A stretch of 36,761 bases of DNA, from IMG/VR virus record IMGVR_UViG_3300028600_000001, positions 1-36,761 of that record, one strand, 5' to 3'. The position numbers were made by a program, and so were the translations under genes. Below the pieces are notes generated by a model that saw only the letters and a list, made by a program, of their open reading frames with translations, had not been told where the DNA came from and did no database searches. Origin of the DNA: a virus. The stretch's first letter is position 1. Every line of letters starts with the position of its first letter. Positions 1 to 29,674 of the stretch are shown here, piece after piece.

Positions 1-127
1 AATCCTTCCGGAGTAAACACCACGGGCAAATAAAGATCATCGGTCGTATAAACTTTATTAGTTAGGCTTCTCGTTACGAAATCTCTGTCTGTGGTGACCG
101 GAAATTCTGAGATTGCTAGATTTCCTT
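1..127. repeat. Terminal direct repeat, copy 1 (assembly overlap or terminal redundancy)
   Basis: Read by eye: aatccttccggagtaaacacc...gattgctagatttcctt is identical to 36635-36761. Confidence 0.95.
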
Positions 128-5942: not shown

Positions 5943-7454
5943 CTATTGCCAGAGGTTAGCGATGCCATTGGTGCAGCGCCATGGTCCTTCCCCAAAGTAT
6001 CTGATTTGAAGAACTAAATCATTCATGGACCCCAACTGCCACCAGACTAATCGGTTAGCCCGTACTCCCAAGCGTCTCAAGTCTTTTCTTAGGTAAGAGC
6101 TAAATTCATAGCCCCCATCTTTGGAAAGAGACAAAGCAACTCTAGGCTGGTATGAGAGCTGCGGAACAATGTGATCAGGATCGTTTCCTTGCTCCATAGT
6201 GAAAGAGAAATTTGTTAATACAAACCTCAACTGATTCGGCGCTCTTATGTTGGAGCACACGCGAATTCTTGGAATTTCTTTTATGTCTCCGTCACCGTAA
6301 TTGTATACGTGGGTAGACTCTTCCAACTGATAGATATTTCCATCATTAAAACTTATCCCGTAATACCTTCCTTCAAAATACGCCACTTCCCTTAGGATGT
6401 GATAATTCATATTCTCATCAGTTACATCAAAAAATTTCTTTGTTGTGAAATCGTAAATTAAGCTGAAGTTATCTTCTGCATTATAGAAGGTGAGCTGGTA
6501 CAAAAGATGCCCACTTATTTTTAGAAAAAAAGCAGAAGAATCTTCTGGATGTTTTAATTGCGCAAACTTGAAGTTCCAGCCATCAGTAGAAATTTGCTGA
6601 ATATCTGTTCCTTCAGAAAACATAATAACTGCGCCGCTCTTTTCATTTGAGCCTAACCAAGCAGTAATCTGGTCTGAAGATGCCAACGTAGCTGGATTTA
6701 CACAGCCATAATCAATATTGGTAGAAGTGCTTCTTTGGTAAGGAAACAACGTAGAAGGGACGCCCGTCCATTGTTCTGTCACCGTCCTTCCCATAACAAA
6801 CAATAGATTCCCCCTTCCAGCTACCCTAATTACTGCTGTGGCTAGGTCACCCTTAGTTTGAATAGACCCGCTAACAGGAGTTCCAGACGCTCCCCACAGC
6901 CAGGAAAGGCCATCACCTGGTGCTGAGAGATACCAATTGGCCGTAATGCGATCGACAATTATGAAAAAACCGTTTTGATAAGTTACATATCCAGGAATTA
7001 CGCCAGGTGGAAGAACAGCTATCTGGAAGGTATCGGCTACGTAATCGTAGACATAAAGAGCCGAAAGATCGCAGAAGGCCACTTGATTTGTGTTGTTTTC
7101 TGCAATAAAGACATCTCCGCTAAATGAGCCTATCGTTCCTATAGGATTTGAAGCGAAAGTGGTAAGGGGATTTCCCATCTGAATTAATGGGGTGAGACGA
7201 ACTACGCTATCACCGACTACTGCTACTAAGAAATCTCCTCGCGTGCTTGCGAAAAGACCTCTTCCTTTAAAGTCTTGGGATAAGGTAAGTACATTCGTGT
7301 ACCCATAGGTATCAACTAACCATCCATCTGCCAGCAGCATATTAAAAGTTCGAGACGCCTGAATCTTGGGGTCTCTTCCAAACGTAGAAGAACCAGCTAC
7401 GTCTACGGGAACCGGAATATGTTCCGGCGTAATTCTTTTGAAATTTTGAGGCAT
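5943..7454 (-). CDS. Tail hub / packaged-DNA stabilisation protein (P22 gp10-like), 503 aa
   Basis: Size and position directly after the adaptor. The C-terminus SLSKDGGYEFS...RLVWWQLGSMNDLVLQIR follows the pattern of the P22 gp10 C-terminus (SATTDGINYG...RVLWKRVGRIRRLIGFKLRV) as I recall it. Confidence 0.55.
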   Translation of the reverse strand: MPQNFKRITPEHIPVPVDVAGSSTFGRDPKIQASRTFNMLLADGWLVDTYGYTNVLTLSQDFKGRGLFASTRGDFLVAVVGDSVVRLTPLIQMGNPLTTFASNPIGTIGSFSGDVFIAENNTNQVAFCDLSALYVYDYVADTFQIAVLPPGVIPGYVTYQNGFFIIVDRITANWYLSAPGDGLSWLWGASGTPVSGSIQTKGDLATAVIRVAGRGNLLFVMGRTVTEQWTGVPSTLFPYQRSTSTNIDYGCVNPATLASSDQITAWLGSNEKSGAVIMFSEGTDIQQISTDGWNFKFAQLKHPEDSSAFFLKISGHLLYQLTFYNAEDNFSLIYDFTTKKFFDVTDENMNYHILREVAYFEGRYYGISFNDGNIYQLEESTHVYNYGDGDIKEIPRIRVCSNIRAPNQLRFVLTNFSFTMEQGNDPDHIVPQLSYQPRVALSLSKDGGYEFSSYLRKDLRRLGVRANRLVWWQLGSMNDLVLQIRYFGEGPWRCTNGIANLWQ

Positions 7455-7466
7455 AGGAAGTCCCTA

Positions 7467-8165
7467 TTAAGGTCGGAAACCTTTTCCTATATTTACATCT
7501 CCGTAATTTAGGCTGAATGGACCATTTCCAAGAACCTGCATAATGTCTAGGCTAAGATCAGGTGGGCTCACGTCTCTAATCATGCGCTCCATGTGTCGAA
7601 GCTTTCTTTCCTGGGATGGAGTCAAAGAAATCTGGTATTCATCAGCAATATCTTCTGCTAACGCATACTTCAAATACCGAAGATAGAAGCCCTCAAACGC
7701 AGTCAGTTCCTCATCTATGGTGACCGAGGAAAATCCAAACTTACCTTCTATCTCAAATGGATAGGCTAAATTGGGTAGAGGATATAGAAATAGATTTGTT
7801 CCATTTAACGTACGCTGAAAATAAGCTTGAGAGGGGAGAGTCGTAATGTTGTTAGCGCGACCCCATCCTTTGTATTGCTTCCTCTGAATAATATCTATTT
7901 CGTACCGTACCGTCCCGAGTGTAAAAGTTATGGTTGATGGATAGACAAGTAGGGGGATGAAATACTCTTCCTGCCCTACTACAGCAGTAAAGTTGTAAGG
8001 CTGGTAATAAGGTATTTGAGAAATTTCAGCTGTTTTGAAATCAAGGAGCTGGTTCAACAGAATCAGCCCCTGACTTTCTTGCTTTGGACTGAGAGTATCT
8101 AGTTCCTCTGAGTTAACAACAAACTTATATGCAGAATCTATAAGTTGTCTTGTCGTTATAGCCAC
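7467..8165 (-). CDS. Head-to-tail adaptor (gp4-like), 232 aa
   Basis: Position between the head genes and the tail hub. The N-terminal LIDSAYKFV...ESQGLILLNQLLD pattern is typical of podovirus adaptor proteins. Confidence 0.5.
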   Translation of the reverse strand: MAITTRQLIDSAYKFVVNSEELDTLSPKQESQGLILLNQLLDFKTAEISQIPYYQPYNFTAVVGQEEYFIPLLVYPSTITFTLGTVRYEIDIIQRKQYKGWGRANNITTLPSQAYFQRTLNGTNLFLYPLPNLAYPFEIEGKFGFSSVTIDEELTAFEGFYLRYLKYALAEDIADEYQISLTPSQERKLRHMERMIRDVSPPDLSLDIMQVLGNGPFSLNYGDVNIGKGFRP

Positions 8166-8187: not shown

Positions 8188-9000
8188 CTACGTAAGTGAG
8201 TAAGTCGATCCCAAAGTTAAAACAGAAACTAGACCGCCCGCAGTATCTACAAAGGCTCCAACTCCGCGTTGCCCGGCTACGTCCCTTCCAACTGGCATAC
8301 GAATATACTTATTAGCAAACTGCACAGTCGATTCCACCCATATATTAAAATAATAATTTCCGTTCGCCCCGGGATCAGTATTTGATGGGGTGAAAAATGC
8401 TTGTGTATCGACCCCTCCTGCGTTACTCAAGGTAGACATAAAAGAGAATATTTTTGCTGTAGGAGGAACCTGAAGGGGGAATCCACCTATTTGAAATCCA
8501 AAAGAGGTATTAGAAAAATCCAGCTGTCCGTTTTCTAGGTGTCTCTCCCACTGAATAGTTCTAGAATTCAATCCGTCCTCAATCATCGTGAAGCTTTCTA
8601 CTTCCGTACTAACATTGACAAACACCCACCCTACAAATCTGTGAATATCGTAGGATTCGCCAGAAGGAGAATTTATTACAGGAACCGAAGGAATGGAGTC
8701 AGGAGAATCTTCTAGAACTGCAACTACCTTAGGGACTAAAGCGGCTAAAGAAGACTGGAGAACAAAAACGCCATACCAGCTGTTAGGAGCCACAGTGCCA
8801 GCCAATAAACCATTTAAACCATTGGTAGTTAAATCTAAAGTAATTGGAGAATTAACCACCATATCAAAGGTGTTAGTGCTATCTCTTGCCTGTCCCGTTC
8901 CTACAGAAATGGCTGCATTGCCAGCTACTGTGAACAGGCATCCCTGAACATACAAAAATCCTTTGTTTACTACAGGAACAGCTCTTTTTTCTATAGACAT
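8188..9000 (-). CDS. Structural paralogue family A, copy 4 (270 aa), function unknown
   Basis: Shares VVN.G.LY.QGC, G..RDSTNTFDM, WY..FV, YD..RFVGWV and GRD motifs with the three genes upstream. Confidence 0.7.
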   Translation of the reverse strand: MSIEKRAVPVVNKGFLYVQGCLFTVAGNAAISVGTGQARDSTNTFDMVVNSPITLDLTTNGLNGLLAGTVAPNSWYGVFVLQSSLAALVPKVVAVLEDSPDSIPSVPVINSPSGESYDIHRFVGWVFVNVSTEVESFTMIEDGLNSRTIQWERHLENGQLDFSNTSFGFQIGGFPLQVPPTAKIFSFMSTLSNAGGVDTQAFFTPSNTDPGANGNYYFNIWVESTVQFANKYIRMPVGRDVAGQRGVGAFVDTAGGLVSVLTLGSTYSLT

Positions 9001-9012
9001 GAAAATTAACTC

Positions 9013-9840
9013 CTAGATTGAGAATGTGAAACTACTTACCTGAATTTGGAGAGAGTTTCCTCCACCATCCCCGGCTATAATTCTTCCACCGATCCCGGCG
9101 TTACCACTTCCGTCTCTTCCAATCGCCATGGATAAGAAAGTTCTTCCAATACCACCACCCACAGCAACAGGAGAATCAAATTGAAATATATAAGCGCTGG
9201 TGGGTCCCGGATCAGTTACTCGTTGACTGATCGCAGCAGTAAAGGGGGTCACACCAGCAAGATTTAGTAAGACCCCTTGCGCTTCAAATTCTAGGGTAGT
9301 TGGTGGCACGAGACTTCCAAATGATCCAGTCATAAATGCATATGTGGCGCTTGTAAAAGAAACCGCGGTGGCAGTCAAATCATTCCAATATACTTTTCTC
9401 TTCCCAACACCACCAGGAATCATGGTGTACTGTAGGAGTCCGGAAGACCCGCTTCTCACCCAGCCAATAAATCTAAAAATATTATAAGTTTGATCACTTG
9501 AAAGGGGTAAATCTTTAGGAAATGGAATTTCATTAGGAGAAGTTGATGTAACAGCTATAGTGGCTACCTGAAGAGCGTCTAACTTGGAACCCATAATAAA
9601 AATGGCGTACCACGTGTCGTTTGAAAATGTTTCTGTTGGTTGAAGTCCATTAACACCGGAGACACTTAAATCCAAAATAGAGTCTTGTGACAATGCCATA
9701 TCAAACGTATTGGTGCTATCTCGCACTTGTCCGGCCGATACGCTAAGAGTATTTGCGGTAAGAGGCTCTACTAAGCATCCCTGTTCGTAAAGACTACCTT
9801 GGTTAACAACTTGAGTTACAAATTTTTGTTCTACGGCCAT
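9013..9840 (-). CDS. Structural paralogue family A, copy 3 (275 aa)
   Basis: Same motif set: VVNQGSLYEQGC, GQVRDSTNTFDM, WYAIFI, YNIFRFIGWV, PPTTLEFEA, IGRD. Confidence 0.7.
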   Translation of the reverse strand: MAVEQKFVTQVVNQGSLYEQGCLVEPLTANTLSVSAGQVRDSTNTFDMALSQDSILDLSVSGVNGLQPTETFSNDTWYAIFIMGSKLDALQVATIAVTSTSPNEIPFPKDLPLSSDQTYNIFRFIGWVRSGSSGLLQYTMIPGGVGKRKVYWNDLTATAVSFTSATYAFMTGSFGSLVPPTTLEFEAQGVLLNLAGVTPFTAAISQRVTDPGPTSAYIFQFDSPVAVGGGIGRTFLSMAIGRDGSGNAGIGGRIIAGDGGGNSLQIQVSSFTFSI

Positions 9841-9851
9841 TATTATCTCCT

Positions 9852-10664
9852 TTAAATTAAATGGGTGTACGAAAGAATAGAAATGTTCAAAGGGACTGTA
9901 GCGGAATCTACAATACCCCCAATACCCATGGCGTTATTAGCTAGCGCGTTTCTTCCAACCGGCATAGAGAAAAAAGTTTCTCCAAACTCAGTTATCAAAA
10001 CCGAAAAATCAAAATAATAGTCGTTTATTGTTGGTGGTTCTGTAGGAACAAAAGTAACGTGGGCGTCATATTGTGAAGTTGGAGGTATACCAAGCATCGT
10101 GCCAACTGCTTCAAATTCAAGACCTGTTGGTGGAACCCAGTCACTCAAGGTAGCCGTATCAAACTGAAAGCTTGTATTGGCAAAAGTTAGAGCAACCGAA
10201 GTCTGTTCCCAAAATACTTTCCGGCATCCCCCGCCAGTTGGAACCATCTTAAAATTTTCTATCTCCACAGATGCATTTGTGCGCACCCATCCCAAGAACC
10301 TAGATATGTCATAGGATTTACCGGAAGAACCGGAATTTAGGACAGCAATAGAAGGGAGAGAATCCACAGAATCAGACTTTACCGCCATCCCGAGTGGAAG
10401 AGCATTCTGAAGTTTTGAAGATAAAACAAATATTGCATACCATGTATTTGCTTCAGCGGCACCACTCTGTAACCCACCTAACCCAGGTACAGAAAAATCT
10501 ATAGCCAAGGGAAACAAAACCTTTATGTCAAAAAAGTTTTTACTGTCTCTTAACTGACCGCTAGAAATTGATACCGATAACGGTCCCGTTTTTTCCAGCA
10601 AACACCCCTGCGAATAAAGATTTGGAGCATTTACGACTTGTCGTACAAATGGCTCTGTGCCCAT
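9852..10664 (-). CDS. Structural paralogue family A, copy 2 (270 aa)
   Basis: Same motif set: VVNAPNLYSQGC, GQLRDSKNFFDI, WYAIFV, YDISRFLGWV, PPTGLEFEA, VGRN. Confidence 0.7.
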   Translation of the reverse strand: MGTEPFVRQVVNAPNLYSQGCLLEKTGPLSVSISSGQLRDSKNFFDIKVLFPLAIDFSVPGLGGLQSGAAEANTWYAIFVLSSKLQNALPLGMAVKSDSVDSLPSIAVLNSGSSGKSYDISRFLGWVRTNASVEIENFKMVPTGGGCRKVFWEQTSVALTFANTSFQFDTATLSDWVPPTGLEFEAVGTMLGIPPTSQYDAHVTFVPTEPPTINDYYFDFSVLITEFGETFFSMPVGRNALANNAMGIGGIVDSATVPLNISILSYTHLI

Positions 10665-10676
10665 TAGAATTCTCGG

Positions 10677-11453
10677 TTAGATTAAGTAATGACAAGATAA
10701 AACCTTAAGTTCTAAATTGCTTGCAGCAGCACTTACTATCGTACCAAACCCAAGATTTCCTGAGACATCTCGACCTACCAATATTCTGAACTCTATTGGA
10801 TCAGGCAAAGTAGGAAGCGCATTCACACACATAAAGTAGTCAGGTAACGTGGGTGGCTCCGTGCTTAAATAAGTTATATAGCCATTCTCAACTATTGAGG
10901 GATTAAGAACATCCATCTTCAGATTTACTTCAAGAGCGCTTGGAGGAATAGAAGCCCCTAGATTTCCTTGGTTGAAGGCGAAGACTGTGTTGTTTACCGA
11001 AAGGTCTACCGAAGGTAGATCCCAATAAACCGTTCTACTATTACCACCCGTAGGTACCATCCTAAACGGTCTAATTTGTTGAGTACCATCCACGAAGTAC
11101 CAGCCAACAAAACGATTCATGTCATAAGTAATCCCCTTCTCCGAAAACACTTCATAGGGAGGAGGAGTGTTATCCGTGGAAGACATGCCCTCAAAAACTG
11201 CGCTTAGCCTAGGCTGAGCAGCTTGAAGCTTAGAAGAAGCCAAATAGAGAGCATACCAATTATTGGCTGCCAGCTCTGGAGTCGTAAAAGTCACGCTAAG
11301 AGGCTGATTTACTACTATGTCAAAGCTGTTCGTGGAGTCCCGAACTCTCCCAGTAGAAAGTGAGAGAGTTGTGGGTCCCGGAGACGAAAGAACGCAGCCT
11401 TGAGCATATAAACTCGGCGCATTTACGCTCTGCAACGCAAATTCTATTCCCAT
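10677..11453 (-). CDS. Structural paralogue family A, copy 1 (258 aa)
   Basis: Same motif set: VNAPSLYAQGC, GRVRDSTNSFDI, WYALYL, YDMNRFVGWY, VGRD. Its start abuts the coat gene stop. Confidence 0.7.
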   Translation of the reverse strand: MGIEFALQSVNAPSLYAQGCVLSSPGPTTLSLSTGRVRDSTNSFDIVVNQPLSVTFTTPELAANNWYALYLASSKLQAAQPRLSAVFEGMSSTDNTPPPYEVFSEKGITYDMNRFVGWYFVDGTQQIRPFRMVPTGGNSRTVYWDLPSVDLSVNNTVFAFNQGNLGASIPPSALEVNLKMDVLNPSIVENGYITYLSTEPPTLPDYFMCVNALPTLPDPIEFRILVGRDVSGNLGFGTIVSAAASNLELKVLSCHYLI

Positions 11454-12796
11454 TAGACGTTCCCGGTAGGTATGCAGATTCGCATGCTATTTTCAGCGAC
11501 CAAGGTAGAACCGTAGATCACGTCATAAACGTAGGATCGTTGATTCTGCTGGAAGACTGTTCCCCAATAGTTTCGGAGGGAAATAGCTGTTCCTTCATGA
11601 GACTTATGCACAGTTGGGAAAGGAATTTCGTCTGGAAGTTCTGGAGAAGCGTAGTAGAAAGGTTTGCCGGACATGATGACGCCAGCCTTATGGCTTGGAA
11701 CTACACCAGCAGTTCTTCCTGCGAGCAACGACTGATTTATATTCTGATTAGGATCAGCGCTCGTGTTAACCAAAGCTGGATAAATTGGAACCGTAACATT
11801 ACCAGCACCATCCGTATTTACGTCTGCAGTACAACGAACCTGAACCGCGAAATCACTCAAGAAATGGCCAATGAAGGTTAAATAACGGAAGTTATTCGTC
11901 TCATCAAATTGGATTAAATCACCACTAACTAGAGCGCCTGTCTGGCTAAGAAGTGGGCTATTGAAAGTAATTTCAGTAATTACGCCATTTACTTCGTTGG
12001 TTGAAACTACTGTAAGAACGTTTGCAGGATTAGCCGCGTCTCCTACTGCACCAGCCTGATGGTCGGGCAGTAAGTTAGTCTGATAGTAATCACAACCGCC
12101 CTGATTACCAATCTTCCAACCCATTGCGTAGTCAGAGTTTCTTTTTTCTACGAACTGGTTTAATGCGTTACCAACAACGTCTGGCTGAATGATGTCAGGC
12201 AGGATAGATACGCACTGATCTTGAGCAGCACCGTAGTTACGGAACTGAACGCGGGAACGAGCCAACTGGGTAACGGAGTTATAAGCTGGTATAGCTGTGT
12301 CGCCAATAGTCCAACCATTAGTAAAGAAACGATAAGGACCGGAGGTAACGTCGACGACCTGACCATTATTGGGTGACTGGTCGTTTCTAACAACAAAGGA
12401 ACTTGTTACCTGACGTAACAAATCTTTTTCCATTTTGGCACCAATCTCATACATACGAGATTTACCAAATTTCTCCATGTAGTCCATCACATTGAAGATG
12501 TACTGTTCGGCATTAAAGGTGTAGTTAGAGCTGAGAGCTTGGGTAACAGATAAAGACTGAACCCTTTGTTCACTTCCCTGATTGGAAATCACCAAAGACT
12601 CTTGAGTTTGGGCTCTAGGCGGCAAATCAAACGTTACAGTATCCCCTAAGTTGCCAGGAATTTTATTAAATTCCTTGTACCGAGTGTTTGCAATACCTGT
12701 CTTTGGATTAAGAACAACAGAATAGTTAATGAGCCACGCAAGCTGCGCGTCCATATAACGTTGTACAGTTTGAAGGATATTGGTAGGTAAAGCCAT
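11453..12796 (-). CDS. Major capsid (coat) protein, 447 aa, probably P22-coat-like HK97 fold
   Basis: Follows the scaffold gene. Size near P22 gp5. AGGAGACATC lies upstream of the ATG. GDTVTFDLPPR-type motif. Confidence 0.75.
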   Translation of the reverse strand: MALPTNILQTVQRYMDAQLAWLINYSVVLNPKTGIANTRYKEFNKIPGNLGDTVTFDLPPRAQTQESLVISNQGSEQRVQSLSVTQALSSNYTFNAEQYIFNVMDYMEKFGKSRMYEIGAKMEKDLLRQVTSSFVVRNDQSPNNGQVVDVTSGPYRFFTNGWTIGDTAIPAYNSVTQLARSRVQFRNYGAAQDQCVSILPDIIQPDVVGNALNQFVEKRNSDYAMGWKIGNQGGCDYYQTNLLPDHQAGAVGDAANPANVLTVVSTNEVNGVITEITFNSPLLSQTGALVSGDLIQFDETNNFRYLTFIGHFLSDFAVQVRCTADVNTDGAGNVTVPIYPALVNTSADPNQNINQSLLAGRTAGVVPSHKAGVIMSGKPFYYASPELPDEIPFPTVHKSHEGTAISLRNYWGTVFQQNQRSYVYDVIYGSTLVAENSMRICIPTGNV

Positions 12797-12841: not shown

Positions 12842-13537
12842 TTATTTCTCTGAAAAATAAGCTAAAAAGTCATCTACCGATTGAGGATCTCCGCCTTTGT
12901 GAGCGGGAGAATGTGAGATTTGGTCTAAAGGAGCAGGCGCATCAGTAAATTGTTGGACGTCAGGAGAACTTTTCTTCATAAGATCAGAAATAGCTGCATC
13001 AGCAGCTTCTTCCAATCCAGAGCCATAACTTTGTTCTACCATAAGAGCAATAGCTGGATTCTTAGCGAGATGATAAACAACATCGGCAGCAACATTTGGA
13101 TTCTTCATGGAAGCCTGGAGAATGCCCGGCATTTTATCTAACGGGAGATTCTTCGTGACCGTCCTAAAGTCCTTATGTTTCTGCTCTCCTTCCGATAACT
13201 TTTGTTTATACGAGTTAACGGCCGCCAAAGCGTCTTGTTTCTGTCTTTCTTTTTCCTGAGTTTGCTGCTGCTCATATAGTTTATTTAGAGCTTCCTGCGT
13301 CCCTCTCTCAGCAGCTTGTTTAGCAATGGCTTCTAGATCAGGCATGGAATTTTGCTGAGGAGCGCTAGTCGGTTGGTACTGACGAGCTGCTCGATCAGAA
13401 GCTTCCTTCCTAACTTTGCTTGCGACAGAGTTAAGACCTTGCTGATATTCGGCCTCGCTATAAAACTTTTGAGTATCAGGAGTTGGAGCACTTACTTCAG
13501 GGGAACTTAAACCCCCATTTTTTTCTTCTACTGACAT
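12842..13537 (-). CDS. Scaffolding protein, 231 aa
   Basis: Between the portal and coat genes. Charged, Gln/Glu/Lys-rich coiled-coil centre (QQQTQEKERQKQDALAAV). Confidence 0.6.
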   Translation of the reverse strand: MSVEEKNGGLSSPEVSAPTPDTQKFYSEAEYQQGLNSVASKVRKEASDRAARQYQPTSAPQQNSMPDLEAIAKQAAERGTQEALNKLYEQQQTQEKERQKQDALAAVNSYKQKLSEGEQKHKDFRTVTKNLPLDKMPGILQASMKNPNVAADVVYHLAKNPAIALMVEQSYGSGLEEAADAAISDLMKKSSPDVQQFTDAPAPLDQISHSPAHKGGDPQSVDDFLAYFSEK

Positions 13538-13758: not shown

Positions 13759-13948
13759 ACTTTACATTCGTTGAAATGTCACCATAAGGGTTAACGGGCC
13801 ACTCCTTAAAAGAGTCTAGCAAAGACACTTTAACCTGTTGTAGAGGTCTGATGATCCGCAACTCCTCAAGCATCCCACGCGCCCATTCTGTCTCCCTTCG
13901 TAGTTTTCGTTCCTTCTCCCTGCGTCGTCTTCGCTCTTTCTGTTTCAT
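13751..13948 (-). CDS. Small Arg/Lys-rich protein, 65 aa
   Basis: ATGA start/stop overlap with the portal gene suggests coupled translation. N-terminus KQKERRRRREKERKLRR. Confidence 0.45.
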   Translation of the reverse strand: MKQKERRRRREKERKLRRETEWARGMLEELRIIRPLQQVKVSLLDSFKEWPVNPYGDISTNVKCE

Positions 13949-16137
13949 TTTTTATCCCCCTTTTCGGAAGCCTTACTCATAGCTCTTTCAACCGCCATTA
14001 AAGCATCAGCTGCTGAACGACTCTCTTCAGACTCAAGCCTTTCTTTTTCTAGCAAAGCTTTTTGAGAATCTAAACCTAACTCACCAAATACTTTCATGCG
14101 CTTGGTAAGAGCATCGACTTCCTTAGTATCAGCATTCTGTTTTTCCACGGCAGCCTTAGCGCTACTTAAGATAGTTTCTGTCTGAAGTTTCTGCTGCTGC
14201 AGTGCATACTCTTCTTGCTGTTTTTTAGCAGCCAGCTGAATCTCCTGACCCTTCAGCAGAGTTGGGTCTTGAGCTTTGAGAAGCTTCTGACGCTCAGCCA
14301 ATTCCATCTGCTGAGTCTGCATAGCCATCTGGGACTGCTGCTCCAACTTCTTAAGATAGGGCTCAACACCTTTCTTGAGCGACTCCACTCCTTTTATCTC
14401 TAGATTGTTTAAGAGGAGCTCAATACCTTGCTGTGTCTCTCCTATGTACTTACCTATGGCTGGATAGGCCTTACTTAAGCCCATCATCGTCTCTAGAGCT
14501 TCTTGGCGTCTTAGAGAGTTACTTGGGCCAGGAGTTATATCCACAGACAAACCGTGAGGATCGTAATTAAGAGAAGGCCCCCCTTCTTGATTGACCTTTA
14601 CATAAGCGCGACTCCCATTGGAATCTTTAACTGGGACCGTTCTAGCAGTCACGTAGTATTTAGGGATCAAGTCCATGCAAATAAGAGCAACTTGAGCTAG
14701 CCCATCTTCTACAAAATTGAAAAAATAAGGGAGGGCAGAAGCTGTCGAGAGACGATCTAAAGCAATGATTCCTTTGCCGCTGATAGGACCACGATTCTCT
14801 ATCATAGAGTGTTGGGTGCTAGATAAAACATTGGCTACCTCACTCATATTATGGAAAGAATCTAATACATGAGGGGGCGTCTGCTGGCGTGGCATAGGAG
14901 ATGGCGTCGGAACAGGCTGGTTGTCATCATCTTTATGGTTGTACACCAGAAGACTAGCCTTTCGAGTCTTAAGCCACGCTTCCGAAAAGGTCTCTTGGCT
15001 AGGCAATGCAGCTCTAGGCATCATCATTTGACTCATCTGAAGACTCTGCATGTCAGCCGAAATAGTATTTCCCGCAAAATTCTTCATCTCTTGGAGATAC
15101 TTTAAGTTTTTGACATAAGACTGGGTGAGCTGCCCGGTACCACTAGCTTCGCTTTGGGATAGACGAACTGAGTTTCCATCCAAAAAGACTAAAGGCAACA
15201 TGGAGTAACTGGTTTTTTCGATGGATAGAATTTGGTTATCAGTAAGCAAATATCGATAGATGTGAGTAACAATCGTGGTCCGTTCCCTCAAAATTCTAGG
15301 AGGGATCACCAAAGAAAAAGAGCCGTAGAGCCTATCGTATTCAGATTTGCTTATAACTTTAGGGCCGCTCTCATCCTCAATCTCATACATGCGTTCCTTT
15401 TTCTTCTTCTTCTGATAATGATCAGCTACCAAAATGATGCTTCTGTTACCACTCCGAAGCGTAAAGTTAAAAGAACCAACGTTGGTGCTGCCAGTTGCCT
15501 CTAGATAGTCTTCATCACCACGCTCCTTCCCTATTTCTTTCTTCAAAGCTTTGGAGCCAAATTTTTCTCCAAATTCTTCTATGGACATGGGGAAGAGATT
15601 TCCGCAGAAATCTGCGTCGCACTTGGATCGCTTGGTGGCTTTCTTGTCAAAATATGCAAGTGTGGGATCTATAACTTTTTCTATTCGAATTACTTGATCG
15701 AAAGAACGATCATGCTCGTACTCTGTAAATACTTTGAGAAAACTAAAACCACCAACCACTACCTCGCGCATAGCATCAAACAACATTTGTTTCTGAGATG
15801 AACTCGTTAGGATTTCTCTTAGAATTCCTTCTATTGCGTCTACCTGCTCAGCATCGTTCGGATTTTCTGAGGGAGAACCAACCTTTATGGAAGGTTCCTG
15901 ATCAACCCACGTTCTTAGGAGCTCGTTAACAGGCGCTTCCGTAATATTGAATTCCATAGAGGGGCATTGAGTTTCTCGAGCCAGAGCTTCATCTCCATCA
16001 CTAATGCTACTTTGATAAACAAACTTCATGAAATACTGGAAGCTATCGTAATTTGGCTTGAAATAGTTGTAGGAATCTTCAAGCTTATTTTTTATCAGCT
16101 TCAGTTCCTCTTCCGTACGGTAGGGGTTAGCACTCAT
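13945..16137 (-). CDS. Portal protein, 730 aa, with a ~130-aa C-terminal coiled coil (P22-portal-like barrel)
   Basis: Immediately after TerL. Size close to the P22 portal. C-terminal heptad-like Gln/Glu/Lys-rich region. Confidence 0.8.
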   Translation of the reverse strand: MSANPYRTEEELKLIKNKLEDSYNYFKPNYDSFQYFMKFVYQSSISDGDEALARETQCPSMEFNITEAPVNELLRTWVDQEPSIKVGSPSENPNDAEQVDAIEGILREILTSSSQKQMLFDAMREVVVGGFSFLKVFTEYEHDRSFDQVIRIEKVIDPTLAYFDKKATKRSKCDADFCGNLFPMSIEEFGEKFGSKALKKEIGKERGDEDYLEATGSTNVGSFNFTLRSGNRSIILVADHYQKKKKKERMYEIEDESGPKVISKSEYDRLYGSFSLVIPPRILRERTTIVTHIYRYLLTDNQILSIEKTSYSMLPLVFLDGNSVRLSQSEASGTGQLTQSYVKNLKYLQEMKNFAGNTISADMQSLQMSQMMMPRAALPSQETFSEAWLKTRKASLLVYNHKDDDNQPVPTPSPMPRQQTPPHVLDSFHNMSEVANVLSSTQHSMIENRGPISGKGIIALDRLSTASALPYFFNFVEDGLAQVALICMDLIPKYYVTARTVPVKDSNGSRAYVKVNQEGGPSLNYDPHGLSVDITPGPSNSLRRQEALETMMGLSKAYPAIGKYIGETQQGIELLLNNLEIKGVESLKKGVEPYLKKLEQQSQMAMQTQQMELAERQKLLKAQDPTLLKGQEIQLAAKKQQEEYALQQQKLQTETILSSAKAAVEKQNADTKEVDALTKRMKVFGELGLDSQKALLEKERLESEESRSAADALMAVERAMSKASEKGDKK

Positions 16138-16173: not shown

Positions 16174-17685
16174 TCACCACCTATTTGCATAGAGCTCTGC
16201 TGTTCTAAAGGCAGACTCTGCGAACTTTTGCTCAAACTTAGAGACAGCTTCATCATTACTGTTCATTTTCTTAGGCCGATATTCACTAAAGGCATACTCT
16301 AAGGCTTCGCATACATGGCTGTGGTGATTCTTTTTGGGAACAGGTTTCAACGAAGGAATCTTGTCCCATCGGGAAGTTGGAAGAACCTCGTAGTGGAAAT
16401 CACCCAAGAGGCCTTCACGTATGGTGTGGCAGCCTTCTGAAAGAAGAAAGCCGGGTTCACCCTTTATCATACGTGTTAAGAAATATTTTAATGCATCTCT
16501 TCTGAATTCTACACTATTTGAGGCAGCAGGTTTAGAAATTACCCCGTGTTCTTTTAGGATTATGGATGCTGTCTTGCCATCAGCCGTACTTCCCATCCCA
16601 GAAGGATCATGACGACTCACATGGTTATTTCTCCACCACGGGTATTTTTTATCCAAAACTGGGATCACGGTGTCTGAAAGGAAGGGCCTTAAGAAATCCT
16701 GAACAGTGGGAAATTCATCGAGCACGAAAATCCTGCCGTCCGGCTGCCTCTGTATAACCACACACGCAGGAGTGTTGCCAAAGTCCCAGCCTAAACAAAT
16801 GGAAAGGTTTGGGATTGCCTTAAGATCGGCACGACTATATTGAATTGAATCATTGAACTCAGGATGGACAGGATGGCCCCACTGTACGGTTCCGTACTCT
16901 CCGCACAGATTCACCTTAATGTAATCCGTGGCAGCGCCACGCGCATTGTTAAGCCAATAGCCTGGGGGAGACGTGTACTGAGTGTACTCGGCGTCCGGGT
17001 TCTCTTTCCATTTGTTACCCTCTAAATCGATGGCGTACTCGTTTTCTTTTAGCTGATCTTTTGCCGTAGCTAGAACAACAGCGGGAGGATAGTCGAAGAG
17101 AGTCCACCCAGATCGTTTTTGTCTTTCAAAGAAATGATATATCCAGTGGTTCGTCTTAGGAGGGTTACAATCTGCGATGACGAGTCTTTTCCCTAATCCT
17201 CCTCCCATTTTACGACTGGGATAACGCATGGTCCTTTCCAAAACATCTGTTAAAAGCGCAGGACTTTTAATGAATTGACACTCGTTCAGATAGAATCCTG
17301 TTGCTTCTAAAGATTTGAGCTTTACGACGTCCTCTGGTCTTTCGAGGGCCATGAAGATGAGCTGGATTTCAACCCCCGGAAAGGTGAGGGTGTGATAGAT
17401 TCTTCCCTGACCAATGGGTCTTCCAAAATATTCTGAGGGGAACCACGATTGCCAGGTTGGCACCGTAGTGTCGTGTAGATTTGCGTAGGTATCTCTTACA
17501 ATTACCCATTTAGAACGACGAACGCCGTCAAAACAGGGTTTTTGATATAAAGTAGAATCAACCATAGAAACTAGGGCGATAGAGGACTTTCCACACCCAG
17601 CGGGCCCCTTAAGGAGCTTCACATCCGAGGTACGGTCAGATAAAAAAGCTAGTCCGATATCGTCATATCTAAAGTTGGTTATCAT
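16174..17685 (-). CDS. terL: Terminase large subunit, 503 aa
   Basis: Walker A GPAGCGKSS. Walker B-like LVIADCNPP. C-terminal RNase-H-like nuclease motifs (LGWDFGNTPA, HDPSG). Followed by the portal gene. Confidence 0.9.
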   Translation of the reverse strand: MITNFRYDDIGLAFLSDRTSDVKLLKGPAGCGKSSIALVSMVDSTLYQKPCFDGVRRSKWVIVRDTYANLHDTTVPTWQSWFPSEYFGRPIGQGRIYHTLTFPGVEIQLIFMALERPEDVVKLKSLEATGFYLNECQFIKSPALLTDVLERTMRYPSRKMGGGLGKRLVIADCNPPKTNHWIYHFFERQKRSGWTLFDYPPAVVLATAKDQLKENEYAIDLEGNKWKENPDAEYTQYTSPPGYWLNNARGAATDYIKVNLCGEYGTVQWGHPVHPEFNDSIQYSRADLKAIPNLSICLGWDFGNTPACVVIQRQPDGRIFVLDEFPTVQDFLRPFLSDTVIPVLDKKYPWWRNNHVSRHDPSGMGSTADGKTASIILKEHGVISKPAASNSVEFRRDALKYFLTRMIKGEPGFLLSEGCHTIREGLLGDFHYEVLPTSRWDKIPSLKPVPKKNHHSHVCEALEYAFSEYRPKKMNSNDEAVSKFEQKFAESAFRTAELYANRW

Positions 17686-17703: not shown

Positions 17704-18669
17704 TTATGCCTGGGACATAGGGATGGTGAACCTAACAATTTTAGGAGGCGTGATGACCCAACTGTATTCTGCGTTCTCTTCGTCGATAGAAACGTTCAAC
17801 TCCCACTTACCTTGAATGGCTACCCCGAGAGTGCAACGTGGCATTAGAACGCCAGACAAGTCCGAGTCTAACTCTTGTGTACCCTCAATTAGCTTTGCAG
17901 TTCTGAATTTTTCCCTAAAAATATGGTGGCCTAGATTCCCCGCTGGTCCTAATAGCTGAGAGAATACATGGGAAATATCAGGCGTCTTTCTAAGCCAACG
18001 AATAAGAAAAGGATGGGACTGGGGAAAATCATAATAAAGAGGCGCACCATCCAAGCTCGCACAAACTTCTTCAGGAGACGGGTAATCTCCCGCATCAGAG
18101 CTCCACATTCCTCTCTCTCCTTCCTTAAACAACCTATGAGTAATGGTTTTGAGAGGCAAAGAGGGAACTCCGCGCTCGATAGACCATTCGATAGCCCTAC
18201 CGTAATCACATTTGCTGAATACCGCAGCTTCGGTATTTAAAGTTGGCATAGAAAAGAATATATCTTTAGAAAACGAGAGAAAAAGATTACGCGTTTCTTG
18301 AACAACGTCCGCTATCCTTGAGCGCGGCACAATCCAGAAAACCTGTTCCTCTCTCTTAAAGTAGCTGTCTCTAAGATCTAAAAAAGTTTCCGGAGTGTAC
18401 TGAGGAATAAACAATCTCTCGGGAGACCAATGATTATCGTAGTGCATACCCGCAGCGGAGATTAACTGGAGGTAGATATCTTTGATAGATAATGGATACC
18501 ACAAATCGCAGGTCTCCCCTCCTTTTTTAGCGATCGGAACAGTTGAAACTACCAGATCACATTCTTTCAAAAACAAGAAATGAGTTTTACTTTTCTGTAG
18601 GTCAAAGTTCATATAAATTTCTTTAACATCTTTGTAAAACTCACCTTCTCCAAACAGTTCATTCATCAT
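17704..18669 (-). CDS. Hypothetical protein, 321 aa, directly upstream of terL
   Basis: Long ORF with overlapping start/stop coupling to the upstream gene. No motif recognised. Confidence 0.6.
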   Translation of the reverse strand: MMNELFGEGEFYKDVKEIYMNFDLQKSKTHFLFLKECDLVVSTVPIAKKGGETCDLWYPLSIKDIYLQLISAAGMHYDNHWSPERLFIPQYTPETFLDLRDSYFKREEQVFWIVPRSRIADVVQETRNLFLSFSKDIFFSMPTLNTEAAVFSKCDYGRAIEWSIERGVPSLPLKTITHRLFKEGERGMWSSDAGDYPSPEEVCASLDGAPLYYDFPQSHPFLIRWLRKTPDISHVFSQLLGPAGNLGHHIFREKFRTAKLIEGTQELDSDLSGVLMPRCTLGVAIQGKWELNVSIDEENAEYSWVITPPKIVRFTIPMSQA

Positions 18670-18960: not shown

Positions 18961-19132
18961 TGTCTAAGCTCCTCTGGAATTCTCTTAAGTCTCTCTCTAG
19001 GTGCCGAATGCGCTTGTTCATATCATTATATTCCACCTCACATCTTTTATCGTGGCTACGACTGTCTCTCCTATTAATAAAGACAATAATTAGGATTATA
19101 GATTGCAGCGCTAATATAAAAGTTTCAGTCAT
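18953..19132 (-). CDS. Small membrane-anchored coiled-coil protein (59 aa counted from MTET)
   Basis: GGGGGAGAG lies before the ATG at 19132. TM segment FILALQSIILIIVFI followed by a charged helix. Confidence 0.5.
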   Translation of the reverse strand: MTETFILALQSIILIIVFINRRDSRSHDKRCEVEYNDMNKRIRHLERDLREFQRSLDNE

Positions 19133-19457
19133 CTCTCCCCCTTTCAATTTGCTCTACTCGCCCCCAAAGATCAGCTACTTCTTTTTTCAACCCTTTAATC
19201 TCATCCAACCTTGCGACCTTTTCTTCCATTTTCTCTACGCGTCGAATGAAGTCCATAATGGTGGGGCACTCTTTAACCTTTCTATCGCGCTCCAGAGCTT
19301 TTTCTTTCTCATTTTTAATAAGTTCTAGCATTTCTTCCGTAAGTTGGTGAACATACCCTAAGTCGTTAGCCGTAAACTTTTTAGTACCTCCTTTCTCCTT
19401 AACATCTGAAAAAATATACAAAAGTTGTTCCAGCTTTTCGTCAGATGTTTCAGTCAT
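19125..19457 (-). CDS. Early paralogue family B, copy 3 (110 aa)
   Basis: MTETSDEKLEQL...KEKGGTKK, then a coiled coil. Paralogous to the two genes upstream. Confidence 0.6.
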   Translation of the reverse strand: MTETSDEKLEQLLYIFSDVKEKGGTKKFTANDLGYVHQLTEEMLELIKNEKEKALERDRKVKECPTIMDFIRRVEKMEEKVARLDEIKGLKKEVADLWGRVEQIERGRDD

Positions 19458-19704
19458 TGTGCTCTCTCTCCAGTTTGTTTAATCGCCGAGCCATATCATC
19501 TATTTCGTCACGAAATATTTTTTGTCTTCGGTGTTCTTGTGTGAGGCTGATCATTTCCTCAACCGTTTCTGAAAGAAACTTCCACTCGGTCCGACTAGCA
19601 TATTCAGTCCCTCCCTCTCGCTTGATTCGGGTAAGAAAAGATAAAATTTGATCCAGTTTATCCTCAGCTGCTATATCCCATTCCGATTTGTTTTCCATTG
19701 TCAT
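19450..19704 (-). CDS. Early paralogue family B, copy 2 (84 aa counted from MTMENK)
   Basis: The ATG at 19704 forms an ATGA overlap with the upstream stop. AEDKLDQILSFLTRIKREGGTEY matches the family. The longer tracked ORF start overlaps the previous gene by 106 nt. Confidence 0.55.
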   Translation of the reverse strand: MTMENKSEWDIAAEDKLDQILSFLTRIKREGGTEYASRTEWKFLSETVEEMISLTQEHRRQKIFRDEIDDMARRLNKLEREHND

Positions 19705-20009
19705 AAAGGCTCCGGCGTACAGGAACAGCCATTTGGTGTAAATGCTGAGCAAAGTGAAGCTGAGCAAAGTGAAAGAACTTGCTCCAGCTTGTCTAATCGT
19801 AGACAAATCCCATCCACACTGGACTGCAAATCAGCACCATCTACAGAAACATACGCCATTCTCTCATTTTTAGTCAGCTCGACAATTTCCCCCATAAGTT
19901 TGTAAATATACTTCCAGTCTTTAGAATGGGCCTTTTTAGCGCCCCCGGAAGCCTTAATATATTCAATAAAAGATGAAAGTCTTTCCAATTTATCGTCAGA
20001 TGTTTCCAT
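19701..20009 (-). CDS. Early paralogue family B, copy 1 (102 aa) with a Cys-rich tail containing a 5-aa duplication
   Basis: The tracked start at 20012 is GTG; the ATG at 20009 gives METSDDKLERL...KASGGAKK. Contains the 2 x 15-bp tandem repeat at 19744-19773. Confidence 0.55.
   Translation of the reverse strand: METSDDKLERLSSFIEYIKASGGAKKAHSKDWKYIYKLMGEIVELTKNERMAYVSVDGADLQSSVDGICLRLDKLEQVLSLCSASLCSAFTPNGCSCTPEPL
19744..19773. repeat. Perfect 2 x 15-bp tandem duplication GCTGAGCAAAGTGAA
   Basis: Read directly. It is in frame and encodes SLCSA-SLCSA in gene 19701..20009. Confidence 0.95.
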
Positions 20010-20161
20010 CACTCGTCCTCCTCATCAAGTTCCCAAGGATTATCGCAGAAGTCTGGGCGCTCAGGAGTGGGCATAAGAGGCCATTCCACGTAAGGAGGGA
20101 TTTCTAAGTCGGTTTCCCAAGGTAAGTCGGGGGATATGCTGAAAGATTCTGATTTGATCAT
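20009..20161 (-). CDS. Small acidic Pro/Trp-rich protein, 50 aa (not in the ORF track)
   Basis: Hand translation: MIKSESFSISPDLPWETDLEIPPYVEWPLMPTPERPDFCDNPWELDEEDE. CAGGAGCAACAC lies before the ATG. TGATG overlap with the next gene. First gene after the promoter at 20204-20232. Confidence 0.45.
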   Translation of the reverse strand: MIKSESFSISPDLPWETDLEIPPYVEWPLMPTPERPDFCDNPWELDEEDE

Positions 20162-21704: not shown

Positions 21705-22005
21705 AGTTTTTCATCTCCTTTTCCCATCCTGTTTCTCCTTCTAATAGATTTTTGAGAGCTTCTTTCAATCTCCTACGATTTTTTATTTTCCATCTATACA
21801 AAGTAGAATCTCTCATTTTTTTCAGTATTAATAAAACTGATTTAACCGCCATCAGACAGCTGGGGCTCGGGATATATAGTGCCGCACAGATCTTAATAAG
21901 CCTCTTCACATCATCTTTTCCATACCATTTTTTAAACGTTGCCCAGTAGTGAAGGTGATATAAGTAATGTTTCTTAGTCCATTCAATAGACCCCCAATAT
22001 TCCAT
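21691..22005 (-). CDS. Hypothetical early protein, 104 aa, possibly a distant family C member
   Basis: ORF. YRWKIKNRRRLKEALKNLL weakly resembles the family C motif. Confidence 0.5.
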   Translation of the reverse strand: MEYWGSIEWTKKHYLYHLHYWATFKKWYGKDDVKRLIKICAALYIPSPSCLMAVKSVLLILKKMRDSTLYRWKIKNRRRLKEALKNLLEGETGWEKEMKNYEFP

Positions 22006-22385
22006 TATAGTTTTTTCTCCCCCATGAACTCCTGAATTTGCATTAGAAGCTCATTAGTTAACCCTCTTAATCTTTTATGACTCATGGGATTGAAGCGACT
22101 CCATTTGGAATTGATCATTTCATTAATCTGAAAAGTCACCTCCGGGAGAGAACAAAGGAAGCTCTCGTGTCCCGTATGGTGCCCAATAAATTTACACATT
22201 GCGTCTGCCAATAGTCTAAGGTCTTTAAGTAAATTTTTTAGAGGTTTTATTCTATAAAGTTCTCCCACCCATAGGTCACCAAGCACATCTCGCATACAAT
22301 CCAGAACTCGACCTCTTGCCATCAATAAAGTGTGATTTATTTCAGTGCGGTCCGATCCATCTTTTATTGGTTTAGGGGAACTCAT
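22005..22385 (-). CDS. Early paralogue family C member (126 aa)
   Basis: YRIKPLKNLLKDLRLLADAMCKFI and MINSKWSRFNPMSHKRL motifs are shared with 22382..22837. Confidence 0.6.
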   Translation of the reverse strand: MSSPKPIKDGSDRTEINHTLLMARGRVLDCMRDVLGDLWVGELYRIKPLKNLLKDLRLLADAMCKFIGHHTGHESFLCSLPEVTFQINEMINSKWSRFNPMSHKRLRGLTNELLMQIQEFMGEKKL

Positions 22386-22837
22386 TTGCTTTTCCTGGCA
22401 GCTTGTTCAAATGAAACTGTTTCACCTAGGTAGCCATACCGTGAGGGATCATAATCTTTGAATGCGAGTCCCAGGCCTTCAGTAATTTCATGTAAATTTT
22501 TATTTACAAGATTTTGTAATATTTTATGATTCCGAGGATTAAGCCGGCTCCATCTAGAATTTATCATTTTATTAAGATGCAAACTCACCTCTCCAATAGA
22601 GCCACCACTGAAGGTTTGTCGTCCCATAAATGTCATATACCTACACATCTCCTCCATCAATAATCGAATCTCTTTAAGTAAATTTTGGAGATGGTTTACT
22701 CTATAAAATCTTCCCCTGTTTAGGGTGTGATACACGCGAGATTTTTCCCTCAATACATTCCCTTTCAATAAAGAAGATTTATCTTCTATTAACAAGATCT
22801 CCAGCTTATCCCCCTTTTCTAATTCAGTTAGAATCAT
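22382..22837 (-). CDS. Early paralogue family C member (151 aa)
   Basis: YRVNHLQNLLKEIRLLMEEMCRYM and MINSRWSRLNPRNHKIL motifs. Confidence 0.6.
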   Translation of the reverse strand: MILTELEKGDKLEILLIEDKSSLLKGNVLREKSRVYHTLNRGRFYRVNHLQNLLKEIRLLMEEMCRYMTFMGRQTFSGGSIGEVSLHLNKMINSRWSRLNPRNHKILQNLVNKNLHEITEGLGLAFKDYDPSRYGYLGETVSFEQAARKSK

Positions 22838-26328: not shown

Positions 26329-26721
26329 ATGAAAATAGAGTTTCCTTTACCTATCAAGCACAAGAAATCCCCATCTTATTCTAAAAGAGAAGGTCGGTTG
26401 CCGCTGGTAGACACTTCGAAAATGAGTGAAGAAGAAAAATTAGAGCTGGTTAAGTCCCACCCCGCCAACATCCTAAATATAGATAATCCTACTATGGCCT
26501 TAATACAGTTCGCCATTAAGAATCTGGACCCGTCAGGTATTTCCATAAAGTGTAAGAGTGATGAGAGGGGCGTACTAGCAGTCGTCCATTTAAACGAAAA
26601 AAATTCTGAGGAAGTAAAGCTAGCATCGGTGAAACAGGATGGAGATTCGATTAGATACATCAAAAACCCCTCCCCAGCTGTGAAGGCAGCAGCCCGCATA
26701 TCAATGGAGAAGCACAAATGA
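26329..26721 (+). CDS. DUF4116-like repeat protein (130 aa counted from MKIEFPL)
   Basis: AAGGAGA lies 7 nt before the ATG at 26329; the tracked ATG at 26296 would sit at the predicted transcription start. Segments NPTMALIQFAIKN and NSEEVKLASVKQDGDSIRYIKNPSPAVKAAA match the repeats of the next genes. Confidence 0.65.
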   Translation: MKIEFPLPIKHKKSPSYSKREGRLPLVDTSKMSEEEKLELVKSHPANILNIDNPTMALIQFAIKNLDPSGISIKCKSDERGVLAVVHLNEKNSEEVKLASVKQDGDSIRYIKNPSPAVKAAARISMEKHK

Positions 26722-27916: not shown

Positions 27917-27918
27917 AA

Positions 27919-29319: not shown

Positions 29320-29329
29320 CCCTAACCCT

Positions 29330-29674
29330 ATGGAGATAGAAATGAGAAAACCAAACAACAAAACCCTAACTAACGAAGAAACGCTGAGAGAGGTCATGAA
29401 CTTTTGTCACGATATGCAGATGTCCAAAGATTCAATTTTAGATTTACAAAAAAATATGCTGGGAACTTACAAGATTTGTTTTGAGGCAGCAAAAGATGGG
29501 GTTCTCAAGGAGCCCAAAAAAGTTTTAGAAAACCTATTAAAGATGCTCGAGTACTCAAATGGAATTATTTCTTGTGGAAATAGAATCGGCATCCTAAATA
29601 AAGACGTATTCGATCAAATTATGGAAAAGTTTAAAAAGCAGTACGAAGAAAAAGGGGGGAAAAAAGATGCCTAA
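29330..29674 (+). CDS. Hypothetical protein between the exonuclease and RecT genes, 114 aa (or 110 aa from the ATG at 29342)
   Basis: ORF in the operon. GGAGA lies before the second ATG. Confidence 0.55.
   Translation: MEIEMRKPNNKTLTNEETLREVMNFCHDMQMSKDSILDLQKNMLGTYKICFEAAKDGVLKEPKKVLENLLKMLEYSNGIISCGNRIGILNKDVFDQIMEKFKKQYEEKGGKKDA

Follow-up and report, generated by a model that had tools for sequence, protein, structure and literature searches.

In phage BPP-1, the gene bbp16, whose product we take to be a cement protein, lies directly after the coat gene bbp17, and in phi29 the head-fibre gene 8.5 presumably also follows the coat gene directly, its product gp8.5 presumably aiding adsorption. 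Mtd caps the fibre of BPP-1, and KP34-like Klebsiella phages carry several receptor-binding proteins with a common short conserved N-terminal docking peptide and differing bodies, the second of these proteins docking by this short peptide. Among short-tailed phages solved by cryo-electron microscopy, one, Legionella phage LME-1, was found with a gene in the slot between the coat and adaptor genes; its consecutive genes encode the major capsid protein (ALK43930), a head decoration protein (ALK43931), the adaptor (ALK43932) and the nozzle (ALK43933) (PMC12407071). The LME-1 decoration protein (ALK43931.1) forms trimers, with a base that spans two hexons and a penton, an outward-projecting distal part and a fold described as without precedent and common to uncharacterised phages (PMC12407071). 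In cyanophage A4, gp25 combines an N-terminal anchor with a beta-sandwich resembling a carbohydrate-binding module (CBM), forms a trimer on the capsid threefold axes and has been proposed to bind host glycans (PMC12002296). Here we describe a stretch of 36,761 nucleotides from a virus (IMG/VR record IMGVR_UViG_3300028600_000001, hereafter the window, at its full length), in which the slot between the coat gene and the putative adaptor gene holds an array of four tandem paralogous genes.

We show that the four genes belong to a family that is a core component of an uncultured clade of P22-like phages and that has been multiplied independently in several lineages. Profile and model comparisons suggest, at a probability of roughly 0.7, that the family proteins are adhesins or receptor-binding modules on the virion surface.

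The four-gene array and its family

The first and last 127 bp of the window (1-127 and 36635-36761) form an exact terminal direct repeat, and the window thus holds a phage genome that is complete, circularly permuted and 36,634 bp long. Four intact open reading frames (ORFs) with ATG starts, encoding proteins of 258-275 aa, lie on its minus strand between the coat and adaptor genes (paralogues A to D, Table 1). The original prediction, made from the sequence alone, had placed four diverged tandem paralogues of this size at exactly these coordinates. They align end to end with 46 invariant columns and share 34-42% identity in all pairs (36-39% to the first sequence). For paralogue D (8188-9000) and paralogue A (10677-11453), which are among the most distant pairs, BLASTP gave E=1e-44 over 269 residues, a paralogy far beyond chance; the four genes are true paralogues. 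Among the motifs predicted to be common to the four, VN..LY.QGC, G..RDS.N.FD, WY, Y[DN]..RF.GW, PP[TS] and GR[DN] were recovered, whereas the longer forms WY..F and PPT.LE.E hold in some copies only.

The array is compact, with spacers of 11-12 nt, and the ATG of paralogue A shares one base with the stop codon of the coat gene. It spans 3,266 bp, or 8.9% of the genome, in agreement with the 9 percent first estimated. Its GC content (0.42-0.44) is similar to that of the adjoining genes, and a foreign origin of the array was ruled out by this composition. DNA repeats between the array copies reach at most 37 nt at 65-81% identity. Since only such short patches are still alike, the duplications are old and have not been homogenised by conversion, and recent duplication or gene conversion inside the array was likewise ruled out. 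Expression at high copy (head) could not be told from expression at low copy (tail) by either the strength of the ribosome-binding sites or the GC content at third codon positions of the array genes.

The relatives of the four proteins that profile searches returned are all encoded on metagenomic contigs, typically of 34-44 kb, where all are unnamed or annotated as 'hypothetical'. A search of 1.84 billion cluster representatives with a hidden Markov model (HMM) of the family returned 15,936 clusters (50% identity) at E<=1e-3 and 1,338 at E<=1e-30, nearly all of them standalone proteins of 240-290 aa. Each of the four window copies matches the HMM over its full length (positions 1-250) with E-values of 1e-54 to 1e-64, which are partly self-matches as the HMM was built from an alignment containing the four window sequences; independent members match too. 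Along with the full-length profile match, the four copies have the length (240-300 aa) and the G-x-x-R-D-S-T-N and Y...G-[WY] motifs of family members, and RDS.N.FD is present in all of them, but the conserved N-G-x-N-G-L-D-T-G loop is degenerate in paralogues B, C and D and deleted in A, where a nine-residue gap in the paralogue alignment replaces the family's NGLNGLDTG. The window copies form a divergent sub-branch, 17-27% identical to typical family members, and this branch may have lost the function of the loop. Pfam, PHROGs and NCBIfam gave nothing for the four proteins beyond a weak local match of paralogue D to PHROG 17105 over the NGLNG..WY region. A match to a well-known, routinely multicopy protein, named at the outset as the outcome that would overturn the prediction, was looked for by profile and structure searches, and no confident one was found.

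The slot itself is seldom empty in the phages compared. P22 has orf69 between genes 5 and 4, and the closest cultured relatives, VvAW1 and Rhodoferax phage P26218 (hub and coat only 21-25% identical), have one to three small unrelated ORFs there; the initial premise that this position is vacant in P22-like modules does not hold. The 42 IMG/VR loci retrieved by way of the family run in the order terL, portal, scaffold, coat, family gene, adaptor (~236 aa), hub (~520 aa) and a small ORF, followed by three ejection-like genes, a tail protein of ~700-830 aa and an ORF of ~120 aa. Because retrieval through the family would be circular, the adaptor gene served as a second bait for relatives. At least one family member lies between coat and adaptor in 63 of the 64 adaptor-anchored loci that contain both genes, and the single exception is a filter artefact, its family gene overlapping the adaptor start and having been dropped by the filter (same contig as L023). 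These data indicate that the family is a core gene of an uncultured P22-like clade with genomes of ~35-44 kb and not an insertion, as had been proposed; one member is fixed in the slot across the clade, and only the copy number of the window is special. By tblastn against 50,697 phage records, no record with a standalone gene was retrieved with a copy from the window, with a typical family member or with the consensus of the family; a metagenome scan returned one single-copy relative.

About a dozen relatives have an extra Cys-rich ORF (200-307 aa, with an N-terminal CxxC...CxxC) between the coat and family genes (Table 1). The three that were scanned had no Pfam match, and this ORF could be a mobile, homing-endonuclease-like insertion.

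A comparison of copy number across related metagenomic phages, which the original prediction had called for, showed that most relatives have one family copy and that arrays recur: two copies were found in L015, L021 and L039, three in L020/L069 and L055/L056, and five in L013, next to the four of the window; a fragment of a close relative, L125, has at least two. In a neighbour-joining tree, paralogues group by phage (all four of the window, all five of L013 and both of L021), which shows that the arrays arose independently several times; tandem duplication thus led separately, in different lineages, to copy numbers of 2, 3, 4 and 5. The coat of L125 agrees with that of the window at 19 of the 24 C-terminal residues visible, yet the family copies of L125 reach no more than 34-44% identity to any of those in the window, and one-to-one orthologues are not seen. 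A 510-aa protein in the library of representatives (P0058) contains two family modules head-to-tail in one polypeptide, through natural fusion of two members of an array or else through a gene call that reads across a stop.

Protein architecture and site on the particle

Paralogue B was modelled with AlphaFold2 on a 45-sequence alignment as an all-beta protein, with a mean predicted local distance difference test score (pLDDT) of 86.5 and a predicted template-modelling score of 0.86. Its ~20 N-terminal residues, of low confidence (pLDDT 61-65), correspond to a flexible arm and are followed by two beta-sandwiches (~20-130 and ~135-270). The near-invariant residues of the family concentrate in the first of these domains, namely at G..RDSTN, in the NGxNGLDTG loop and at a small number of Y, P and G sites. 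The ~20 residues of the arm are the best-conserved part among the window paralogues (54% vs 38% overall), the same columns being 100% conserved in the L015 paralogues (48% overall), and the C-terminal half is the least conserved, at 23-32% in several sliding stretches of the window array. Over 69 loci, mean distances for the arm, N-domain and C-domain were 0.53, 0.51 and 0.63, compared to 0.36 for the coat and 0.44 for the adaptor; the family diverges faster than either. A short conserved anchor, an increasingly variable body and a fast turnover are together the pattern expected of host-facing proteins on a conserved virion site.

Although the family is unnamed and was not recognised at first, its homology extends to the distal part of tail fibres. 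A Foldseek search of BFVD with the paralogue B model gave a template-modelling (TM) score of 0.76 to an uncharacterised phage protein of 249 aa and scores of 0.59-0.66 to parts of longer proteins, including fibres, from Rhizobium phage Palo (521 aa, 'tail fiber protein'), Pseudomonas phage PPpW-3 (550 aa, 'putative tail-collar fibre protein') and Xanthomonas phage XAJ2 (332 aa, a protein with DUF2793). The likeness to the XAJ2 protein is one of fold only, to its non-DUF2793 part, and the four proteins have no Pfam match to DUF2793 (PF10983), which marks the N-terminus of tail proteins such as RcGTA Rcc00171 and DMS3 gp49. By hhalign, the family profile matches residues 347-468 of PPpW-3 ORF15 with 94% probability (E=9e-8); this protein has a Phage_tail_fib domain at its N-terminus (Pfam, residues 1-149) and is encoded directly after baseplate J/I-like genes, in the position of P2 gpH. 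With 99% probability, hhalign also finds the module as the C-terminal half of a 458-aa protein of the P22-like metagenomic phage MW202573, which is encoded at the end of the tail module (the tail-fibre locus), just before the lysis genes. A 404-aa protein of L042/L043 carries the module after fibre-repeat sequence. The only Pfam family matched is PF21916, the second domain of Mtd, which is hit by 34 of 114 family members at E<=0.01 (best E=2.6e-5), P0058 scoring above the Pfam gathering threshold. The four proteins have no Pfam match to the tail-fibre attachment domain (PF12571) or to a shaft, and the module begins ~20 residues from the N-terminus. As judged from these profiles and the model, the four proteins are homologous to the distal, receptor-facing parts of tail fibres, with the ~20-residue arm in place of the attachment domain and shaft.

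Searches of solved structures gave little. Foldseek against the PDB returned only generic jelly-roll or CBM domains, one domain at a time and with TM scores of at most 0.29, and a PDB sequence search with two family profiles found no chain at E<=10. Neither C-type-lectin nor reverse transcriptase (RT) domains of Pfam were found among the proteins scanned. Diversification by a diversity-generating retroelement was considered and rejected, no repeat of the template/variable type involving 8188-11453 and no RT match among the proteins scanned having been found.

The homology to structural fibre modules also bears on the idea that the proteins act outside the virion, as an assembly factor or in superinfection exclusion or anti-defence, and merely reside in the late operon. 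Their match to no curated family would suit such a role, as would the fact that incorporation into the virion is deduced only indirectly, but the fold and profile relationships, together with the invariant place in the head-tail morphogenesis operon, the tight spacing and the start overlapping the coat stop, make it highly unlikely.

We propose that the four genes encode divergent forms of a single core protein on the virion surface, in an uncultured clade of P22-like podoviruses. A short, conserved and flexible N-terminal arm, with the consensus P-[IV]-V-N-x-[PG]-x-x-Y-x-[NQ]-G, would dock the protein on the particle; a conserved middle beta-sandwich, probably related to the second domain of Mtd and to the distal part of tail fibres, would follow; and a fast-evolving C-terminal beta-sandwich of jelly-roll/CBM-like type would contact a ligand on the host surface, probably a glycan. 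The proteins would thus resemble the receptor-binding heads of tail fibres without the shaft, and would probably be trimers. As the four copies combine the same anchor with different bodies, they would occupy the same class of site and provide four binding specificities per particle or burst. Presence in the virion, trimeric state, capsid location and ligand binding are all inferred. Of the roles first put forward, decoration proteins or head fibres and interchangeable receptor-binding modules are the two readings favoured here, with a putative location; the original prediction as a whole is partly supported.

The most likely site would be the outside of the T=7 capsid, where a decoration or head-fibre protein could aid reversible adsorption, and we tentatively favour display on the capsid, at somewhat less than an even chance, because the gene always follows the coat gene, the solved precedent for the slot (LME-1) is a capsid protein, and the N-domain tracks the coat. 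The gene adjoins the coat gene in the head module, as a decoration or head-fibre gene would. The positions of bbp16 in BPP-1 and of gene 8.5 in phi29, and A4 gp25 as a capsid-bound trimer of similar build, speak for the same site. In a mirror-tree analysis of the 69 loci, the distances of the N-domain had a partial correlation of 0.43 with those of the coat and -0.06 with those of the adaptor, although the correlation with the coat is confounded by physical linkage, the coat gene being the direct neighbour of the family gene on its 5' side. Part of the same evidence would fit purely structural cement proteins, with the paralogues adapted to distinct quasi-equivalent threefold positions on the T=7 lattice, stabilising the capsid and taking no part in host binding: the position after the coat gene, universal retention, co-variation of the N-domain with the coat, and an N-terminal arm with a globular body resembling lambda gpD and phage A4 gp25. 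However, copy numbers of 1, 2, 3, 4 and 5 without a matching change in the coat, a divergence faster than that of the coat and fastest in the distal domain, and homology to the receptor-binding ends of fibres render a purely structural role unlikely. A cement role and an adhesin role are compatible with each other.

Besides the linkage between the coat and family genes, several observations weigh against an adhesin displayed on the capsid. The presence of any copy in the virion is not a direct observation, and no cultured clade member was found among the 50,697 phage records searched. None of the four window copies matches PF21916, and hhalign of the family against BPP-1 Mtd was not significant (0.9% probability). 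Neither the PDB sequence search nor Foldseek against the PDB yielded a sequence match or a convincing fold match to any solved decoration protein. The annotated fold homologues are all tail fibres, none a capsid protein, and the fused versions are encoded at tail-fibre loci. The universal retention of the gene would also fit a primary receptor-binding protein of the tail.

The last of these points agree with a possible, though doubtful, alternative, in which the proteins are receptor-binding proteins mounted on the tail or neck, their N-terminal peptide docking on the enlarged adaptor, the adaptor/hub junction or the end of the 783-aa fibre, and the four copies serve as alternative or co-mounted host-range determinants. 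The link to the second domain of Mtd and the core status expected of a primary receptor-binding protein speak for it, as do the conserved anchor, variable body and fast turnover, a classic signature of receptor-binding proteins; moreover, the family gene directly precedes the adaptor gene, and the adaptor is enlarged (232-404 aa vs 166 aa in P22 gp4). A tail, however, offers only 6-12 sites, so that four or five paralogues carrying one anchor would be in competition; the capsid, with its many equivalent sites, could accommodate several of them without this conflict, unlike a tail with six. At the canonical tail-fibre locus there are already the 783-aa fibre, with its Collar-like motif, and three small fibre-head-like paralogues, the solved slot occupant in LME-1 is a capsid accessory, and the N-domain has no residual correlation with the adaptor.

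In phage Sf6, the needle binds the hub by a short conserved tip at its N-terminus and bears a jelly-roll knob, and the family proteins could by analogy plug the tail tip or form a needle-knob closing the gp10-like hub, with one trimer per particle and a burst of four particle types. No P22 gp26-like needle was identified in the window, only an 89-aa ORF following the hub. Given a model without a coiled coil, a gene placed upstream of the adaptor and hub instead of after the hub, and an ORF of 89-140 aa kept at the needle position in relatives, this arrangement is scarcely credible.

Returning to capsid display, its fullest form would be a shaft-less fibre tip redeployed as a capsid-docked trimeric lectin and multiplied in tandem time and again, a single conserved docking peptide placing several specificities on the many equivalent capsid sites, so that a mosaic, multi-specific 'sticky head' sets the primary adsorption range. 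The fastest-evolving proteins of host recognition would then be borne by the head as well as the tail of this abundant clade. We regard this as speculative, and as a doubtful proposition in its entirety.

Neighbouring genes and other features of the genome

The minus-strand order in the window is TerL, portal, scaffold, coat, the four paralogues, a 232-aa protein, a gp10-like hub and ejection-protein-like genes (Table 1). The portal, the coat, the hub and a gp7-like ejection protein were matched in P22 order, in line with the P22-like module originally described, whereas the adaptor is assigned by synteny only. The 209-aa ejection protein (ej209) matches the gp7-like 'DNA ejection' PHROG (598), and the hub homologue in L001 carries the Pfam domain Phage_stabilise. 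For the 232-aa putative adaptor, a homologue is annotated as 'tail adaptor' in MW202573; the protein had no Pfam, PHROG or PDB match, and hhalign against P22 gp4 was not significant. Directly upstream of TerL, in the position expected for a small terminase, lies an ORF of 321 aa (17704-18669, minus strand) without a Pfam or PHROG match.

Table 1. Features of the window and of the coat-adaptor slot in relatives (HMM E-values are partly self-matches)
Feature	Position	Strand	Remarks
Paralogue A	10677-11453	-	258 aa; first after coat gene; family HMM E=2.7e-54, full length
Paralogue B	9852-10664	-	270 aa; copy used for modelling; family HMM E=2.5e-62
Paralogue C	9013-9840	-	275 aa; family HMM E=3.7e-58; strong AGGAG ribosome-binding site
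Paralogue D	8188-9000	-	270 aa; last copy; 22 nt upstream of adaptor gene; family HMM E=1e-64
TerL	16174-17685	-	
Portal, P22-type	13945-16137	-	Pfam PF16510 (P22_portal) 3e-62
Scaffold	12842-13537	-	
Major coat protein, P22-type	11453-12796	-	447 aa; PHROG 283 (major head protein) 2e-14; tblastn match to VvAW1 'P22 coat protein'
Putative head-to-tail adaptor	7467-8165	-	232 aa; GTG start; synteny before gp10-like hub in all relatives
gp10-like tail hub	5943-7454	-	503 aa; PHROG 578, head closure Hc3 (gp10/Hc3), 3e-35
783-aa gene wrapping the window ends	~1106-1 joined to 36634-35389	-	P22 tailspike position, after ejection genes
Second paralogue array	34152-35015, 33501-34142, 32824-33486	-	287, 213 and 220 aa; 28-32% identity
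Transglycosylase-type endolysin	32050-32676	-	PHROG 669
RecE-like exonuclease and RecT-like annealing protein	28468-30539	+	PHROGs 434 and 148
Two paralogous DUF4116 proteins	27302-27916, 27898-28392	+	66-nt internal repeats; near-identical first 42 nt
Sel1-repeat protein	26718-27305	+	108-nt repeats
Extra Cys-rich ORF in relatives	L014 4214-4876; L018 9012-9935; L026 9281-9967; L036 9269-9919		further loci: L084, L090, L097, L100-102, L113, L114

The 783-aa protein has a C-terminal Collar-like motif (VPDLRGMALRG) and homologues of 705-832 aa in relatives, that of L001 with a weak Pfam Collar match; the protein itself had no PHROG or Pfam match. The second paralogue array follows a 120-aa ORF and lies between the long fibre gene and the endolysin gene. 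Its three proteins have the N-terminal motifs LPAA.LP..GADE and LPASY.P.NY..ST..G.L.GID in common; they were considered as members of the four-copy family, and comparison showed no relation. The AlphaFold model of the 287-aa protein is poor (pLDDT 47); its C-terminal beta-sandwich matches tail fibres and the heads of C1q/collagen fibres, which is no more than suggestive of a fibre head of C1q/TNF-like type.

Tandem duplications are frequent throughout the genome. A small podovirus would not usually carry repeat proteins of the Sel1 and DUF4116 kinds, and their occurrence presumably hints at a host among amoeba-associated bacteria. At 19125-20012 and 22005-22837, on the minus strand, are three ORFs of ~103-118 aa with 63-80-nt repeats and two ORFs of 126 and 151 aa with an 81-nt repeat. 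No tRNA genes were found in the window, and no integrase among the proteins scanned.

Significance and comparison with known systems

The family is uncharacterised, with no function in Pfam, NCBIfam or PHROGs and no solved structure, and yet it is among the commoner structural families of metagenomic phages; the finding is real and more than an annotation gap. A fibre-tip module with a 20-residue anchor provides a testable handle on host recognition in phages that have never been cultured, and also on the transfer of receptor-binding modules between the tail and, probably, the head. If the proteins are located on the capsid, head-mediated adsorption would be a core and rapidly evolving trait instead of an occasional accessory. 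The combination of a conserved anchor with a swappable, lectin-like head would be a compact modular display scaffold that could serve phage engineering.

The window proteins resemble PPpW-3 ORF15 (P2 gpH-type; PHROG 988/17105) and the Palo fibre in their fold of two beta-sandwiches (TM 0.66), the profile homology to ORF15 including the G-x-N-G-L-D-T-G ... Y-x-V-Y-V-I motif region. Different from these fibres of 520-550 aa, which carry an N-terminal baseplate-attachment domain (Phage_tail_fib) and a shaft, the window proteins have only the ~20-residue arm, and their genes are adjacent to the coat gene and multiplied in tandem. Mtd of BPP-1 has the build proposed for the window proteins, being a receptor-binding trimer of small size that lacks a shaft and docks through its N-terminus, and PF21916 is common to it and some family members; diversity in the window, however, comes from gene multiplication and not from a diversity-generating retroelement, and mtd stands at the end of the tail module and not after the coat gene.

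With LME-1, a short-tailed T=7 phage, the window phage shares the slot in the order coat, decoration, adaptor and nozzle, but LME-1 is T7-like and not P22-like and has a single copy, and homology to ALK43931.1 is not supported. Cyanophage A4 gp25 has a similar architecture of an N-terminal anchor and a CBM-like beta-sandwich. Both A4 gp25 and phi29 gp8.5 are single-copy and have no sequence or strong fold match to the window proteins, and the A4 gp25 gene is not adjacent to the coat gene. In the KP34-like phages, the proteins are large depolymerase tailspikes encoded at the tail-fibre locus, whereas here they are lectin-like heads of ~270 aa encoded beside the coat gene. Receptor-binding modules with an anchor and a variable body, lectin-headed capsid decoration and phages with multiple receptor-binding proteins are thus already known; what is new is the combination of a standalone module, a fixed slot adjacent to the coat gene and repeated lineage-specific arrays.

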